Source of the DNA: Adineta ricciae
Taxonomy: Eukaryota
Length of the DNA: 27,703 bases
Assembly (NCBI GenBank): GCA_905250025.1
Contig: CAJNOJ010000073.1
Location: 110,175-137,877, forward strand
Direction of reading: 5' to 3'
This document shows positions 3,971 to 13,214 of this stretch, in pieces. The position numbers and the translations under genes were made by a program. The notes under the pieces are model-generated. The model ran no database searches, was not told the DNA's origin, and saw only the letters and a program-made list of their open reading frames with translations. Each line of letters begins with the position of its first letter. The first letter of the stretch is position 1.

Positions 3971-5101
3971 ATGGTCAATTTGGTTTTAAGCTTTCTATGT
4001 CAACCAGAAGTAGAAGCTACGCTCACGCTTCTCACCTCGATTATTATCTTTGGTATTGTGCCATATATCCGATCATCGTATTTATTCATTGGAGTCTATC
4101 TTCTTGGTGTTTACGTTCTTATACGATGGATTGCTCGTGGCGGTCAATATAATGCTCTCAAAACAAAGGATCTCAGTGGAAAAACTTATTTAATCACGGG
4201 CGCTGCTGGTGGTATTGGAAAACAAACAGCTCTTGAGTTGGCAAAGCGTGGTGCGAAAGTTGTACTTTTCGCACGACCTAGCAACTTACAGGAAGCCATC
4301 AGTGATGTTAAAAAAGTCGCTCGAGATTCCAAGCTCGTTAGCGGTTATCCAATTGACTTAGGTGACTTACGTGCGATTCGAACAGGCGTCGAGCAGTATA
4401 AGAAAAGTGAAGGTCAGTAAGTATTGCAATAATGACATTCAATGACGAATGTATGTATGATTTTAATTTGCAGGAATACTCCAATTACTGCTTTGATTAA
4501 CAATGCTGGAGTTATGGCCTGTCCATACGCACTTACTAAAGATGGTTTCGAAATGCAAATGGGTACTAATCATTTTGGTCATTTTTATTTAACTCAGTTA
4601 CTTCTTCCTCAATTACTCCAATCAAAATCACGTGTTGTAAACGTTTCGTCATTAGTTCATGCTAAATGGAAAGTACCGTGCACATCTGATACATATGCCC
4701 AGCAGTTAAACAAAGAAACATACAATCCTTGGAATGCATATTCTCTAAGCAAAACGGCGAATATTGCTTTTACTCATGAATTACATCGTCGTTTTCATTC
4801 ACAAGGTCTCAATGCGTACGTCCTTCATCCTGGTGGAGTTGATACAGGCTTACAACGGCATATATCCATGTCACAACTAGCGTTTGCTCCGTTTCGATTG
4901 CTTCTTCTTAAAACACAACTCGAAGGCGCTCAAACAACTCTTTACTGTGCTGTGTCGGATGATGTTGTGTCAGGAAAATACTATTCCGATTGCCGCGAAG
5001 CAGAAGTAGGTAACCCGCATGCGAATGATTCAGAACGAACTCGCGAGTGGTGGGACTTTTCCGAAAAGATTATCACCGAGAAGATCAAAGAATTGAATTA
5101 A
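3971..5101 (+). CDS. Short-chain dehydrogenase/reductase, retinol dehydrogenase 11-14-like, with an N-terminal transmembrane anchor (2 exons).
   Basis: Exons 3971-4416 and 4474-5101, joined across a 57-nt GTAAGT...TTTGCAG intron. Joined protein reads ...KKSEGQ|[16 protein letters not shown] hallmarks: TGAAGGIG cofactor motif, NNAG, and a YSLSK (YxxxK) active site. The C-terminal [18 protein letters not shown] is typical of RDH11-14. The hydrophobic N-terminus is MVNLVLSFL...[15 protein letters not shown] lies at 5173-5178. Confidence 0.85.
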
Positions 5102-5172
5102 TTGCATCACACAAAACAACACTTCCTCTTTCGACATTACCTATTTGTATGTGTAGATGAATCCCAAGATAA

Positions 5173-5178
5173 AATAAA
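5173..5178 (+). terminator. AATAAA polyadenylation signal candidate for the SDR gene.
   Basis: AATAAA lies 72 nt downstream of the stop codon at 5099-5101. Confidence 0.35.
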
Positions 5179-5194
5179 CTCTCATTTTTTCTCT

Positions 5195-5201
5195 ATAAAT
5201 T
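5195..5201 (+). promoter_or_regulatory. TATAAAT, a candidate TATA box for the WWE-ART gene.
   Basis: TATAAAT lies about 150 nt upstream of the ATG at 5353, in an A/T-rich intergenic region. Confidence 0.25.
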
Positions 5202-5352
5202 GAAAGTAAGTTGGAAGAAAATAGTAGTCGATTTAACTGAATTAAAAGAATGAAAGAAAAAAAACAAATACTTCAACAATCCGTTATATTTCGTGCGAGT
5301 AACGCATAATTCTTGCATCATTCATTTTTGTAAGTTTCACTTGAGAACAATC

Positions 5353-9981: not shown

Positions 9982-10960
9982 ATGTCAGCAAGCAAAGAAC
10001 GCGTGTTTGTTACTGGTGCAACTGGAAATATCGGCGGTGATATCGTTCGCGGTCTCATCGAAAAAGGAATCAATACAACAGCATTTGTACGAGATGAAAA
10101 CAAAGCAAAAGATTTGTTCAAAGATGAATGCAGCACTGGACGTTTGAAATTCGTCGTTGGTGATTATTCGTCCGTTGATGCATTTACAAAAGCAATTCAA
10201 GGTCATACTCGTCTATTTCTTCTATTCGCTGCTGTTCATAGTAAACCAACAGATATGAGTGAAGTGAAGGAAACCTTCGCGAAGATCGCTTTTGAGCAAG
10301 GTGTTCGACAAATTGTTGATCTCTCCTCGGCTTTTGTCAGCAGCTACGGACGAAAAGGTATCATTGGTTATATGCACACAGCAGCTGAAGAAAAGCTTTG
10401 GAAACTGGCAGACGAAAATCCAGCACAACGTTCTCTTGTAGTACTTCGTCCTGGAACGTTCATGAGCAATCATTTCATGAGTGATGTGCACCAGATCAAG
10501 AGAGCGAACAAGCTCGTCTCATGTGGAGCACCGTCATCAGTAGTAACATGGATCGATACGAGAGGTATGTTAAAACAAAGATAATGATGAATTTTATTAT
10601 TTTTCTGTTTTTCACTGGTTAGATATCGCGGACTGTGCTGTAGCCGTTCTAAGTGAACCCGTTGACAAACATGACCGGAATATCTATGAACTTGGCACTG
10701 AAGCTTTAAGTAATGAACAGCGAGCAGCCATCTTCACGAAAGTTTTAGGTAGACCTATTACGTATGAACAACAATCATACGAAGACTTATATAAATTTTT
10801 GACTGGCATGGGTCTACCGCATTCGATTGTATATAACTTTACAATGGTGGCTTCCAAAAATATTTGTGATACTACTACTCCTGAAATCGCTCTTATTACC
10901 GGTCGACCACTACGCACACTTGAACAATGGATCAAGGACAACGTTAAAGCGTTTCAATAG
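9982..10960 (+). CDS. NmrA-like family NAD(P)-binding protein (atypical SDR), 2 exons.
   Basis: Exons 9982-10564 and 10614-10960 with a 49-nt GTATGT...GGTTAG intron. Joined protein reads ...WIDTR-D-IADCAVAVLSEP. The N-terminus MSASKERVFVTGATGNIGGDIVRGL is a Rossmann GxxGxxG motif immediately after the start. Overall NmrA/isoflavone-reductase-like organisation. AATAAA at 11038-11043. Confidence 0.85.
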
Positions 10961-11517
10961 ATTTTTTCTTGTATTCGTACTGTTATAGCGAACGTTAATA
11001 TCGTGAACTTTTTTCTGATTTATGGAAAATCTCCTGAAATAAAATCCTATAGATTGAAGTGAACGCCAAGACTGTTTTCCTGATGAAGAACTCACCTTAT
11101 TAACGCAACAGAACAACAAAACTTATTAAAAGTCATCTAATTGCTTGATTGATAGTGAATCATAACGTATTGATTGCTTTTCCATATGATTGTTTACACT
11201 ATTCTGTCACGCTAGAAGGATATGCGTAGGTAAAATATTTACTCTCATTTTCATCACAGTCTAGTAACATTAATACATATTTGTAGAGTAGGGTGGGGAG
11301 AAAAACAAAATCTATTGTCGATAGATTTTTCTTCCGCGTGGTTGTATTTTTCGATAATTATCGATAAGAAAACGCGATGAGAATACGCTTTTTTTGTTCA
11401 TAATCGGTTTTACCGAATATTTTATTTCGTCGTTTTTTTTTCATCGACGTATTTAGTGCAAGGTCATACTGAACTTTGGCCAACATACTAGAAATCAGAG
11501 TCCGAAAGAGGAAGTGA

Positions 11518-11524
11518 TATATAA
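11518..11524 (+). promoter_or_regulatory. TATATAA, a candidate TATA box for the monooxygenase gene.
   Basis: TATATAA lies 44 nt upstream of the ATG at 11568. Confidence 0.3.
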
Positions 11525-11567
11525 CAGTAGTTTTTACTTGTCTGCTTTTTATGTTTCGTAGGGTGAT

Positions 11568-13214
11568 ATGGATAAAGCAATGAATATGCAACAAAATACT
11601 AATGGCGTGACGCGTGGTTCCGATGCATTCGATGTCGTTATCGTTGGAAGTGGTTTCGCCGGCTTATTCATGTTGCACGAGTTACGTAAACGAGGGTATT
11701 CAACAAAAGTCTATGAAGCAGCTGATGAGATTGGAGGTACTTGGAATTTAAATCGATATCCTGGCGCACGATGTGACATTGAAAGTATGCAGTATTCCTA
11801 TTCGTTCAGTGATGAATTGCAACAAGATTGGCATTGGTCTGAACGTTTCGCTCGGCAACCAGAAATTCTTCGTTATCTTAATCATGTCGCTGATAAATTT
11901 GACTTAAACAAAGATATTCAACTTAATGCACGTGTGACTAGCATGGTCTATAATGAAAATCAATCAAAATGGACGATAACAACCGATCATAACAATCGTG
12001 TATCTGCTAAGTATTGTGTTATGGCAACGGGCTGTCTTTCAGTTGCTAGAGACCCTAAAATTGCGGGACTTGACCAATTTAAAGGTAATGTTTATAGAAC
12101 CACTAATTGGCCGAAAAACGACGTCAGTTTCATTGGTCGTCGAGTAGCTGTTATCGGTACAGGAGCATCAGGTGTACAGTGCATTCCAATGATTGCGAAA
12201 CAAGCTGCTCATCTGTACGTGATTCAACGAACACCAAATTTCGTGATTCCAACAGACACTAAACCTGTGGATGCTGAATACGAGAAAGATTGGAAGTCTA
12301 ATTACAATCAGCGTCGATCTCAAATGTTGCAGTCACCTGGTGGTATCTTCTACGATTACGACGATGACGCTTTGCGCGTAAACATGACTGACAGAGAACG
12401 ATTTGAGATCGCATGGCAAAGAGGAGGTCTTTCGTTTTTCACAGCATTCAAAGGTCGGTTGACTGATAATACTATCAAACAAACAATAACTTGTCTAATT
12501 CATGAAAAAATACGCGAAATCGTTAGAGATCCTGTACTTGCCGCTGCTTTATTACCGTACGACCATTTATTTGGTACGAAACGTCCTTGTGTTGCTGGTG
12601 AATATTATGATACATTTAATCTCAAAAATGTTACACTGGTCGATATCCGTCACACAACTATCGATAAAATTACAGCAAAAGGTATTCTAATCGACAATAA
12701 ACTCTACGAAATTGATGACCTTGTTCTCGCTACCGGGTTCGACGCAGTAATTGGATCTCTACTCAATATCGATATTCAAGGTCGGTCAAAACAAACACTT
12801 CGCGAGAAATGGTCAATCAGACCACGGACATTACTCGGCATCATGATTGCCGATTTTCCAAACCTGTTTACTATAACTGGACCCGGTAGTCCTATTAACT
12901 TGAGCAATATGATTCCTCATATTGAGGAAAACGTCAAATGGATAATTAAATGTATTGATTATCTGAACACGCATAATATTGATAGTATAGAAGCTAAAAT
13001 CGACGGGCAAAATGCCTGGATGGACCATGTCGATTTAGTTGCTAGCCAGCTGTCATATTCCGCAGACAGTTTTGCCGGCAATGACTCGAATATTTTAATC
13101 AAACCAAGTTCTTGCATGCGTTATGCTGGTGGTCTTCATAACTATTTGAACATGTGTGAAAAAGTGACTGCCAATGGTTATGAGAAATTTTTTTTGCTCA
13201 AACGATCTAAATGA
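11568..13214 (+). CDS. Type I Baeyer-Villiger (flavin-containing, NADPH-dependent) monooxygenase, cyclohexanone/phenylacetone-monooxygenase-like, intronless (548 aa).
   Basis: FAD Rossmann motif VIVGSGFAG. GGTWNLNRYPGARCDIES resembles the BVMO active-site region with the conserved Asp. The BVMO fingerprint reads FKGNVYRTTNWP, with Arg where the canonical FxGxxxHxxxWP has His. NADPH Rossmann motif VAVIGTGASGVQ. The C-terminal ...LATGFDAVIG... is typical of this family. Single uninterrupted ORF. Confidence 0.9.
   Translation: MDKAMNMQQNTNGVTRGSDAFDVVIVGSGFAGLFMLHELRKRGYSTKVYEAADEIGGTWNLNRYPGARCDIESMQYSYSFSDELQQDWHWSERFARQPEILRYLNHVADKFDLNKDIQLNARVTSMVYNENQSKWTITTDHNNRVSAKYCVMATGCLSVARDPKIAGLDQFKGNVYRTTNWPKNDVSFIGRRVAVIGTGASGVQCIPMIAKQAAHLYVIQRTPNFVIPTDTKPVDAEYEKDWKSNYNQRRSQMLQSPGGIFYDYDDDALRVNMTDRERFEIAWQRGGLSFFTAFKGRLTDNTIKQTITCLIHEKIREIVRDPVLAAALLPYDHLFGTKRPCVAGEYYDTFNLKNVTLVDIRHTTIDKITAKGILIDNKLYEIDDLVLATGFDAVIGSLLNIDIQGRSKQTLREKWSIRPRTLLGIMIADFPNLFTITGPGSPINLSNMIPHIEENVKWIIKCIDYLNTHNIDSIEAKIDGQNAWMDHVDLVASQLSYSADSFAGNDSNILIKPSSCMRYAGGLHNYLNMCEKVTANGYEKFFLLKRSK

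Follow-up and report, generated by a model that had tools for sequence, protein, structure and literature searches.

A stretch of 27,703 nucleotides from Adineta ricciae (contig CAJNOJ010000073.1, positions 110,175 to 137,877 of the forward strand; below, the window) bears a Baeyer–Villiger monooxygenase (BVMO; type I) of bacterial type next to an NmrA-like reductase and among genes of clearly animal character. Adineta ricciae is a bdelloid rotifer, and bdelloids, known for massive horizontal gene transfer (HGT), are the textbook case among animals. The window is very probably nuclear bdelloid DNA where native animal genes are interleaved with genes that were acquired separately and anciently and have been domesticated, and where the adjacency of a short-chain dehydrogenase/reductase (SDR), the NmrA-like gene, and BVMO has arisen by local rearrangement and represents neither an operon nor a cluster. 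In this picture, the native genes would be the RDH-like SDR, the major vault protein (MVP), an ATG27/mannose-6-phosphate-receptor-homology (MRH) protein, and a soluble guanylate cyclase (sGC); BVMO is a member of a bdelloid-wide multigene family, in a subclade of Adineta and environmental sequences devoid of a fingerprint histidine (His-less).

The original prediction, made from the letters alone, regarded the run of same-strand redox genes as a horizontally acquired xenobiotic or secondary-metabolism gene set. All five plus-strand genes were confirmed at their coordinates by the listing of open reading frames (ORFs) and by Pfam scans (Table 1), and the BVMO, NmrA-like, and sulfotransferase products each have an NCBI entry from Adineta ricciae with 100% identity. 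The notion of a set did not hold: the apparent sources of the genes are mixed, the neighbourhood is not conserved, no NmrA–BVMO pairing was found at 80 bacterial loci, and there is no core biosynthetic enzyme in the window. Both the phenomenon and the BVMO family are already in the literature, and HGT candidates have previously been sought across the genome of A. ricciae. The locus matters little beyond confirmation; a BVMO of the same family was among the first bdelloid HGT examples (2008). What is modestly new is the His-less BVMO clade and the lineage-specific NmrA–BVMO adjacency. A tool-free reading of the sequence was able to flag foreign-type genes correctly, and the locus also warns against reading a cluster into foreign-like enzymes that adjoin in the genome of a bdelloid.

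The monooxygenase and its His-less clade

As had been claimed, BVMO is completely intronless: one ORF of 548 codons encodes a product that is 100% identical to the A. ricciae protein P0001. Among solved structures, it matches phenylacetone monooxygenase (PAMO) from Thermobifida fusca (1w4x; E = 3.1e-155, residues 18–543, 521 bits) and steroid monooxygenase (STMO) from Rhodococcus (4aos; E = 1.2e-145), with 43–45% identity to PAMO/STMO, and cyclohexanone monooxygenases (CHMOs) at about 1e-104 to 1e-109. Fungal BVMO structures score 291–323 bits, about 200 bits under the bacterial PAMO/STMO scores. An AlphaFold2 model built from a 17-sequence alignment (pLDDT 77, pTM 0.78) superposes on PAMO with TM-scores of 0.87–0.91, and across PAMO, STMO, and CHMO with TM-scores of 0.82–0.91 over about 535 aligned columns; in the literature, the type I BVMO fold consists of FAD and NADP domains plus a helical insertion. 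PAMO and STMO share with the window protein a full-length alignment, the fold (TM-score 0.85–0.91), and the Rossmann, D66, R337, and QRTP motifs. The window protein differs from them in that it is encoded by an animal, with host codon usage, and bears Arg where PAMO has His173 (our own numbering).

The two Rossmann GxGxx[G/A] motifs, for the dinucleotides FAD and NADPH, line up with those of the family (VGSGFAG, residue 26; IGTGASG, residue 196), and the fingerprint [A/G]GxWxxxx[F/Y]P[G/M]xxxD is present as GGTWNLNRYPGARCD at residue 56. The catalytic Arg and Asp are retained in the alignment, the equivalent of PAMO R337 within FGTKRPC at residue 335 and that of D66 within GARCD at residues 66–70, and the QRTP NADPH motif is conserved. 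The fingerprint FxGxxxHxxxW[P/D] is represented by FKGNVYRTTNWP, where F, G, W, and P are kept and His is replaced by Arg177. Membership in the type I BVMOs can be regarded as secure by homology and by the modelled fold, although the canonical motif definition does not cover this protein.

Arg at residue 177 is no private mutation, since the loss of His is clade-wide. All 19 nearest sequences (P0001–P0019, comprising Adineta proteins, environmental sequences, and A. vaga TrkA) lack the fingerprint His, which is replaced mostly by Ser, but also by Arg, Val, or Cys; Arg is found in the window BVMO, P0002, P0009, and P0012. These 19 sequences form a clade in 100/100 bootstrap replicates of a neighbour-joining (NJ) tree, and the His is kept in the Rotaria clades and in all bacterial relatives sampled. 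In the alignment of PMC4498894, A. vaga TrkA reads FKGKCYSVSQWP at the fingerprint, i.e., its His is lost; the paper (Mascotti 2015) states the hallmark for all its sequences, yet its own alignment gives TrkA in this form.

Natural substitution of this His has a precedent in BVMOAf1 from Aspergillus fumigatus, a type I BVMO with Gln in its place, which has been cloned, overexpressed, and characterised for its substrate scope (PMC3762062); thus, the substitution need not abolish function. BVMOAf1 resembles the window protein in being a natural type I BVMO with the conserved fingerprint His substituted and differs in its fungal source, an extra C-terminal domain, and Gln instead of Arg/Ser. The His-less clade could be of interest to those who mine BVMOs as biocatalysts.

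BVMO is under purifying selection, with dN/dS = 0.13 relative to its homolog in locus L002 (see below). Read by eye, its sequence bears neither a signal peptide nor a C-terminal peroxisomal signal of the SKL type, and on this basis the protein is probably cytosolic. Homology and fold predict FAD, NADPH, and O2 as cofactors and substrates: the C4a-peroxyflavin would attack a ketone to yield an ester or lactone by the Baeyer–Villiger route, or would oxidise a sulfur or nitrogen atom. Dietary or microbial ketones would be the likely substrates, and their handling might fit the “toxin degradation” role that has been proposed for foreign enzymes of bdelloids (PMC3499245).

It could further be supposed that the His-less clade, still under purifying selection, is a subfamily specific to animals whose catalysis or range of substrates has changed, and that NmrA and BVMO, brought together by a rearrangement in A. 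ricciae, make up a nascent two-step redox module built within an animal genome from separate foreign sources. We consider this combined supposition quite unlikely.

Neighbouring genes and the question of a gene set

Two other contigs of A. ricciae bear counterparts of the window. One of them, CAJNOR010000724.1, has the same genes from about window position 5455 on. In the other, CAJNOR010000165.1 (locus L002), collinearity extends over window positions 8327–23477 (L002 6831–21647), aligned by blastn in three pieces of 85–93% nucleotide identity, about 92% in the main block. Between the two copies, dS is 0.149 for BVMO and 0.108 for the NmrA-like gene. Since these values fit the mean KS of 0.135 for A. 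ricciae homologs (PMC5916493), L002 is taken as a homologous, allele-level copy. The gene order NmrA–BVMO–MRH–MVP–sGC is identical on two separate contigs. For the SDR and the WWE-domain ADP-ribosyltransferase (WWE-ART) at the left of the window, no counterpart was found within 10 kb upstream in L002.

Synteny around BVMO is not conserved in A. vaga. Its syntenic locus (L005) contains NmrA (78% identity), the 87-aa ORF, MRH, MVP, and the sulfotransferase (SULT, 70%); BVMO and sGC are absent, and a G-protein-coupled receptor gene with two small ORFs is found at the place of BVMO. In A. vaga, the most similar BVMOs (67% and 66% identity) sit in other contexts, as does that of A. steineri. Besides the homologous copy, the contexts of three Adineta BVMOs (two from A. 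vaga, one from A. steineri), of two NmrA genes from A. vaga, and of three BVMOs from environmental sequences were compared; a conserved cluster was rejected because the arrangement is not kept across the A. ricciae homolog, A. vaga, A. steineri, and environmental contexts.

Enzyme genes of similar appearance were observed at paralogous loci of A. vaga. A vanadium chloroperoxidase-like gene and an SDR lie near a BVMO paralog (L003 16500–21647), and a methyltransferase, an aldo-keto reductase, and a zinc alcohol dehydrogenase are present at another locus with a BVMO or NmrA paralog (L006 12019–20978). Foreign-looking enzymes may thus often adjoin without forming a pathway.

The NmrA-like protein exceeds the Pfam cut-offs for both NAD_binding_10 (56.6 bits; cut-off 27.2) and NmrA (35.6 bits; cut-off 27), and the GxxGxxG motif of its spliced product is GATGNIGG (residues 11–18). 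The family is large, with many bdelloid paralogs, and dN/dS relative to the L002 homolog is 0.29. The best match in the PDB is bacterial SimC7 (E = 4.5e-16), accompanied by triphenylmethane reductase and YtfG; human NMRAL1 was not detected in this search. The nearest non-bdelloid relatives are 44% identical and include a protein from a protist transcriptome and a gene on a eukaryotic contig with Ras and CENP-X. The idea that this gene was acquired stands only in part: no close metazoan relative is found among the matches, but the nearest outgroups are eukaryotic, unlike the bacterial ones of BVMO and SULT. The NmrA-like gene looks old and non-metazoan, with a source other than that of BVMO. 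Its intron is old and common across bdelloids, as follows from dozens of metagenome matches of about 196 aa (P0147–P0238) that span exactly exon 1, i.e., 63% of the query. Such matches are bdelloid NmrA genes cut at the intron by prokaryotic gene callers, and the pattern can serve to recognise rotifer DNA in assemblies from the environment.

The sulfotransferase was said to be of “the same flavour” as BVMO, and the comparison bears this out. After the bdelloid orthologs, it is matched by bacteria (Marinobacterium, Ilyomonas, Poribacteria, Allosphingosinicella, Hyphomicrobiaceae) at 44–49% identity and 283–297 bits; among PDB entries, the highest-scoring animal SULT reaches 104 bits. The motifs of the 5′-phosphosulfate-binding (5′-PSB) loop (consensus PKxGTTW, here FPKCGTTW) and of the catalytic His (KTHLP) are present, and the A. 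vaga ortholog (P0248; 70% identity) adjoins MVP. By its bacterial affinity, the sulfotransferase is a second HGT candidate.

For the SDR, also listed among the acquired genes, no sign of foreignness was revealed. The spliced protein is 57% identical to its ortholog from Didymodactylos carnosus, with no break at the exon junction, and the motifs TGxxxGxG, NNAG, and YxxxK are readable. In the representative search, most matches were environmental proteins, Didymodactylos being the sole named organism in the cluster. The best bacterial plasmid match reaches 36.7% and 123 bits, and the best PDB match, a mycobacterial SDR, reaches 138 bits. To a human RDH11 sequence, the SDR shows 41% identity and 178 bits, a comparison that is a lead, not a test; animal RDH11 and the nearest bacterial proteins are about equally close to it. 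Besides its N-terminal anchor, it has a sequence motif characteristic of RDH11/12-type enzymes from animals. The SDR is probably a native gene of animal type.

Given these mixed affinities, it is quite unlikely that the redox genes constitute a working xenobiotic or secondary-metabolism cluster, co-transferred or assembled in the rotifer, where SDR/NmrA and BVMO would act on one substrate series. Such a cluster is suggested by the presence of five same-strand genes within 9 kb, three of them NAD(P)H-dependent oxidoreductases, by the best solved relative of the NmrA protein being the polyketide ketoreductase SimC7, by the NmrA–BVMO adjacency in both homologous copies, and by the fact that bdelloids do possess horizontally acquired biosynthetic clusters (PMC11258130). 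However, the SDR and WWE-ART are outside the collinearity with the homolog, the syntenic locus of A. vaga runs NmrA–MRH–MVP–SULT without BVMO, no NmrA or SDR gene accompanies the nearest A. vaga and A. steineri BVMOs in this arrangement, and the component genes differ in their apparent origin.

The search for a donor leads to the same outcome. A BVMO alignment was run against 185,579 species-representative bacterial and archaeal genomes, and 80 loci (0.91 Mb) with relatives of 44–51% identity were checked: none of them had an NmrA-like neighbour or a SULT match, and weak SDR matches occurred in 3/80. With no convincing NmrA, SDR, or SULT neighbours at these bacterial loci, co-transfer from a bacterial operon was rejected. 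Neither a core scaffold-forming enzyme (polyketide synthase, PKS; non-ribosomal peptide synthetase, NRPS; terpene synthase) nor a transporter was found in the Pfam scan of the window ORFs or among the annotated genes. In the PKS/NRPS clusters acquired by bdelloids, core synthetases occur together with a P450 and flanking transporters; these clusters show enrichment close to telomeres, and a fungal pathogen induces them (Nowell 2024, PMC11258130). Like the window, they represent non-metazoan metabolic genes in Adineta genomes, but the window lacks a core synthetase and telomeric repeats, and its gene clustering is not conserved. A search by name for BVMO or NmrA entries gave none in the text and supplementary files of PMC11258130 that were searched. 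A subtelomeric placement was considered as well and was rejected, tandem TGTGGG repeats being absent from the window.

The number of foreign-like genes is near the genome-wide expectation. In A. ricciae, HGT candidates make up about 12.5% of the genes (PMC5916493); at this rate, two or three foreign genes among about 11 are unremarkable (binomial P(≥2 of 11) = 0.41, P(≥3 of 11) = 0.15). With the HGT candidates described genome-wide by Boschetti 2012 (PMC3499245) and Nowell 2018 (PMC5916493), which amount to 9–12% of A. ricciae genes, the window BVMO shares metazoan linkage, occurrence in several genera, and a homolog pair; there is no difference of substance, the locus simply not having been described individually.

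Origin and relocation of the monooxygenase

The matches of BVMO rank as follows: Adineta and Rotaria come first, then environmental metagenome proteins, then bacteria at 44–54% identity. The bacterial relatives span Bryobacteraceae, Archangium, Methylomirabilota, Alphaproteobacteria, Chloroflexota, and Actinomycetota, the best named one scoring 626 bits. No non-bdelloid metazoan protein occurs among the best 120 matches, all of at least 603 bits, which gives an hU for BVMO above 23 and probably far larger, HGT candidates being defined by the Alien Index or by hU ≥ 30. In the NJ bootstrap, all named bdelloid BVMOs stand apart from 16 sampled bacterial ones in 100/100 replicates, a split compatible with one old acquisition that would have been followed by expansion. 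Three environmental BVMO contigs were inspected, and all of them are eukaryote-like with fragmented genes (GC 0.36, 0.36, and 0.45). That BVMO is of bacterial type is borne out by the nearest non-bdelloid relatives and by the gap of about 200 bits that separates PAMO from the fungal structures.

In composition, the gene is host-like. Its GC is 0.397 and its GC3 0.326, compared with a GC3 of 0.30–0.37 in the MVP exons, and its codon usage correlates with that of the MVP exons (r = 0.75), a check that had been proposed along with the prediction; the loci of the bacterial relatives have a median GC of 0.65. The metazoan-type neighbours (MVP, H-NOX sGC, and the MRH receptor) are all annotated on the same contig as predicted, and MVP and sGC lie within 2.6–8 kb of BVMO in both homologous copies. 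MVP and H-NOX sGC are native metazoan genes, and the ATG27/MRH gene is native eukaryotic. The view of BVMO as an old, domesticated transfer with host-matching composition agrees with these values (GC3 of 0.33), with dN/dS of 0.13, and with the linkage on two contigs; neither metazoan orthologs in conserved synteny nor a chimeric contig was found for BVMO. It is supported that BVMO is a bacterial-type gene, old and domesticated, and not contamination.

A related gene has a history of dispute. A. vaga “TrkA” (ACD54725.1, P0019) was among the top-scoring HGT genes of Gladyshev, Meselson and Arkhipova (2008; Science 320:1210), as cited in PMC4498894. Mascotti et al. 2015 (PMC4498894) disputed its transfer and argued for ancient vertical descent. 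According to the S2 file of that paper, the best bacterial match of TrkA has 55% identity (E = 0.0), and the best metazoan matches are Oikopleura (25%, 2e-38) and Hydra (36%, 9e-35). TrkA is a rotifer nuclear gene whose product shows 53% identity with the window protein and belongs to its bdelloid BVMO family, with bacterial-type relatives and loss of the His. It differs in being another paralog, on the outermost branch of the His-less clade, with Ser at the His position versus Arg here, and in its location on a telomere-proximal fosmid, the window being without telomeric repeats.

Vertical inheritance of BVMO from an ancient opisthokont or older ancestor, with loss in most animals, could account for the BVMO genes of Hydra and Oikopleura, for the lack of a specific donor that can be named (PMC4498894), for bacterial relatives scattered across many phyla at a flat 44–54% identity, and for the old age of the family within bdelloids. 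It is very unlikely all the same: in the table of PMC4498894 itself, TrkA is much nearer to bacteria than to Hydra or Oikopleura; bacterial PAMO/STMO exceed the fungal structures as described above; the best 120 matches are free of non-bdelloid metazoans; and BVMO is intronless, unlike its native multi-exon neighbours. In the published dispute over bdelloid BVMOs, the differences in score speak for HGT, and those in the table of the dissenting paper do so as well.

The present position of BVMO would be the outcome of a relocation, and non-coding sequence is among the evidence. Similarity to the A. vaga locus L003 (window 11590–13332 versus L003 10023–11771, 73% identity by blastn) extends 118 nt beyond the stop codon of BVMO. 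Further downstream, a conserved non-coding element of about 460 nt lies between MVP and sGC in the window and is 67% identical to L003 15710–16191 (E = 1e-37) and 74% identical over 114 nt to A. steineri L091 16083–16196. Its 16-nt core AAAGGTCTGACTTTCG was found only in L003 and L091 among 91 loci fetched. Its distance downstream from the orthologous BVMO is about 4 kb in A. vaga and A. steineri; in A. ricciae, the distance from BVMO is 7 kb, and MRH and MVP are interposed. The A. vaga BVMO that shares the post-stop stretch and the element with the window (P0005) is located on the same chromosome as the syntenic block, 0.78 Mb away. The simplest reading of these sequence data is an intrachromosomal rearrangement, which would have brought a pre-existing bdelloid BVMO beside NmrA in the A. 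ricciae lineage before the two A. ricciae homologs diverged.

The element overlaps no ORF of at least 100 aa and has no Rfam match. In A. steineri, the core AAAGGTCTGACTTTCG forms an inverted pair (L091 16083–16296). This inverted duplicate prompted the consideration of a miniature inverted-repeat transposable element or foldback transposon, which was rejected because the core is absent from all other fetched loci.

That BVMO entered the A. ricciae lineage by a recent transfer of its own, at this very site, would agree with the lack of introns and with the absence of BVMO between NmrA and MRH in A. vaga L005, but it is highly improbable. The nearest relatives are other Adineta BVMOs, whose identity of 66–67% is comparable to the 70% of the orthologous SULT, and bacteria do not exceed 54%; the derived loss of the fingerprint His is common to the whole clade; the post-stop stretch and the downstream element recur at the loci of P0005 (A. 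vaga) and P0006 (A. steineri), the former on the chromosome of the syntenic block; and the composition is fully host-like, so that relocation by rearrangement fits better. An artefact of linkage, i.e., bacterial contamination or a chimeric contig, has nothing in its favour except the bacterial type of the protein family and is hardly conceivable in view of GC and codon usage as in the MVP exons, the same gene order with coherent dS on two diverged contigs (about 92% in the main block), the record of the exact BVMO protein on two contigs, the longer of 425 kb, and the A. vaga orthologs on chromosome-scale scaffolds amid eukaryotic genes.

Several points weigh against the account preferred here, i.e., native genes interleaved with separately and anciently acquired ones. 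Nine environmental sequences were assigned to the “bdelloid” side by their position in the tree; inspection covered three of the contigs, among which L090, with a GC of 0.45, may not be bdelloid. A single ancient bacterial-to-bdelloid transfer would follow from score gaps and from a limited NJ tree of bdelloid-type and bacterial sequences. Normal BVMO activity is not guaranteed because Arg replaces the fingerprint His. An NmrA-like enzyme of the ketoreductase type and an adjacent BVMO could in principle act sequentially. Finally, an ART gene, a paralog of the window's membrane protein, and BVMO recur together in A. vaga (L004), so that part of the neighbourhood may predate what the comparison with L002 suggests.

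Other features of the window

The coordinates of all features are given in Table 1.

Table 1. Genes and other features of the A. ricciae window, with positions counted from its first nucleotide
Feature	Position	Strand	Evidence and remarks
RDH11/12-like classical SDR, 357 aa, probably native	3971–4416 + 4474–5101	+	Pfam adh_short in both exons; 57-nt GT–AG intron (4417–4473); N-terminal hydrophobic anchor
WWE-ART, 377 aa	5353–6486	+	intronless; Pfam WWE (E = 4.6e-7) and ART (PF01129; E = 2.9e-12)
Single-pass membrane protein, 247 aa	8226–8415 + 8547–9100	+	gene model; intron 8416–8546; Ser/Thr-rich stalk, Cys-containing ectodomain
Left boundary of collinearity with L002	8327		no blastn alignment upstream; SDR and WWE-ART not in the shared part
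NmrA-like atypical SDR, 306 aa	9982–10564 + 10623–10960	+	Pfam NAD_binding_10 and NmrA; 58-nt intron (10565–10622); identical to NCBI P0121
Type I BVMO of the PAMO/STMO type, 548 aa	11568–13214	+	intronless, single uninterrupted ORF
Stretch past the BVMO stop codon, probably 3′ UTR	13215–13332	+	still aligns with the A. vaga P0005 locus
Small ORF, 87 aa	13525–13788	+	annotated; syntenic with A. vaga
ATG27/MRH protein	14038–15277	+	Pfam ATG27 and Man-6-P_recep; syntenic in A. vaga L005
MVP, multi-exon	15843–19117	-	Pfam Vault and Vault_2/3/4; syntenic in L002 and A. vaga L005
Conserved non-coding element, about 460 nt, between MVP and sGC	20362–20823		nucleotide conservation
Soluble guanylate cyclase (HNOB, HNOBA, and cyclase domains)	21233–24718 (3′ end approximate)	+	Pfam; last coding ORF ends at 24718
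Sulfotransferase of the 3′-phosphoadenosine 5′-phosphosulfate (PAPS) type, 289 aa, HGT candidate	24950–25819	-	intronless; Sulfotransfer_1 (PF00685; E = 1.4e-51, 175.8 bits), the cytosolic PAPS-dependent family; syntenic in A. vaga

To the right of BVMO, the region of the 87-aa ORF (window 13355–13786) is 69% identical to A. vaga L005 15209–15691; the ORF has no significant Pfam match. In the A. vaga syntenic locus, the sulfotransferase abuts MVP with no guanylate cyclase between them (L005 18424–20973 versus window 15843–25296). The MVP model of L005 has 529 aa versus 895 aa here, and window positions 15843–17186 have no alignment there.

To the left, WWE-ART is composed of a WWE domain followed by an ADP-ribosyltransferase domain of the R-S-EXE type, with the motifs LYRG, FTSTSK, and HEKEV; neither a match in the PDB sequence search nor a signal peptide was found. 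WWE domains normally accompany PARPs and E3 ligases, and the fusion of WWE with an R-S-EXE ART looks unusual as a domain pairing.

The 247-aa membrane protein had been called lectin-like. A lectin identity was not upheld: Pfam (E ≤ 10), NCBIfam, a PDB sequence search, and AlphaFold2 returned nothing usable, and with no Pfam or PDB sequence match the label is unverified. The AlphaFold2 model from the single sequence (pLDDT 37) contains a confident transmembrane helix at residues 2–31, with pLDDT below 50 in the remainder. The break of collinearity at window position 8327 (L002 6831) falls inside exon 1 of this gene. Upstream of the break, where the window has the SDR and WWE-ART, L002 carries a gene for 1312 aa that is devoid of Pfam domains. 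In the membrane-protein gene of L002, the reading frame differs from one tblastn segment to another, and this copy may be a pseudogene.

A paralog of the membrane protein in A. vaga L004 (37% identity, E = 6e-26) adjoins an ART gene and BVMO. The three genes are thus found together in L004 (1486–11629) and in the window (5353–9100 and 11568–13214), the first two being inverted in L004, and this co-occurrence may be an old paralogous microsynteny or a chance product of expanded families.

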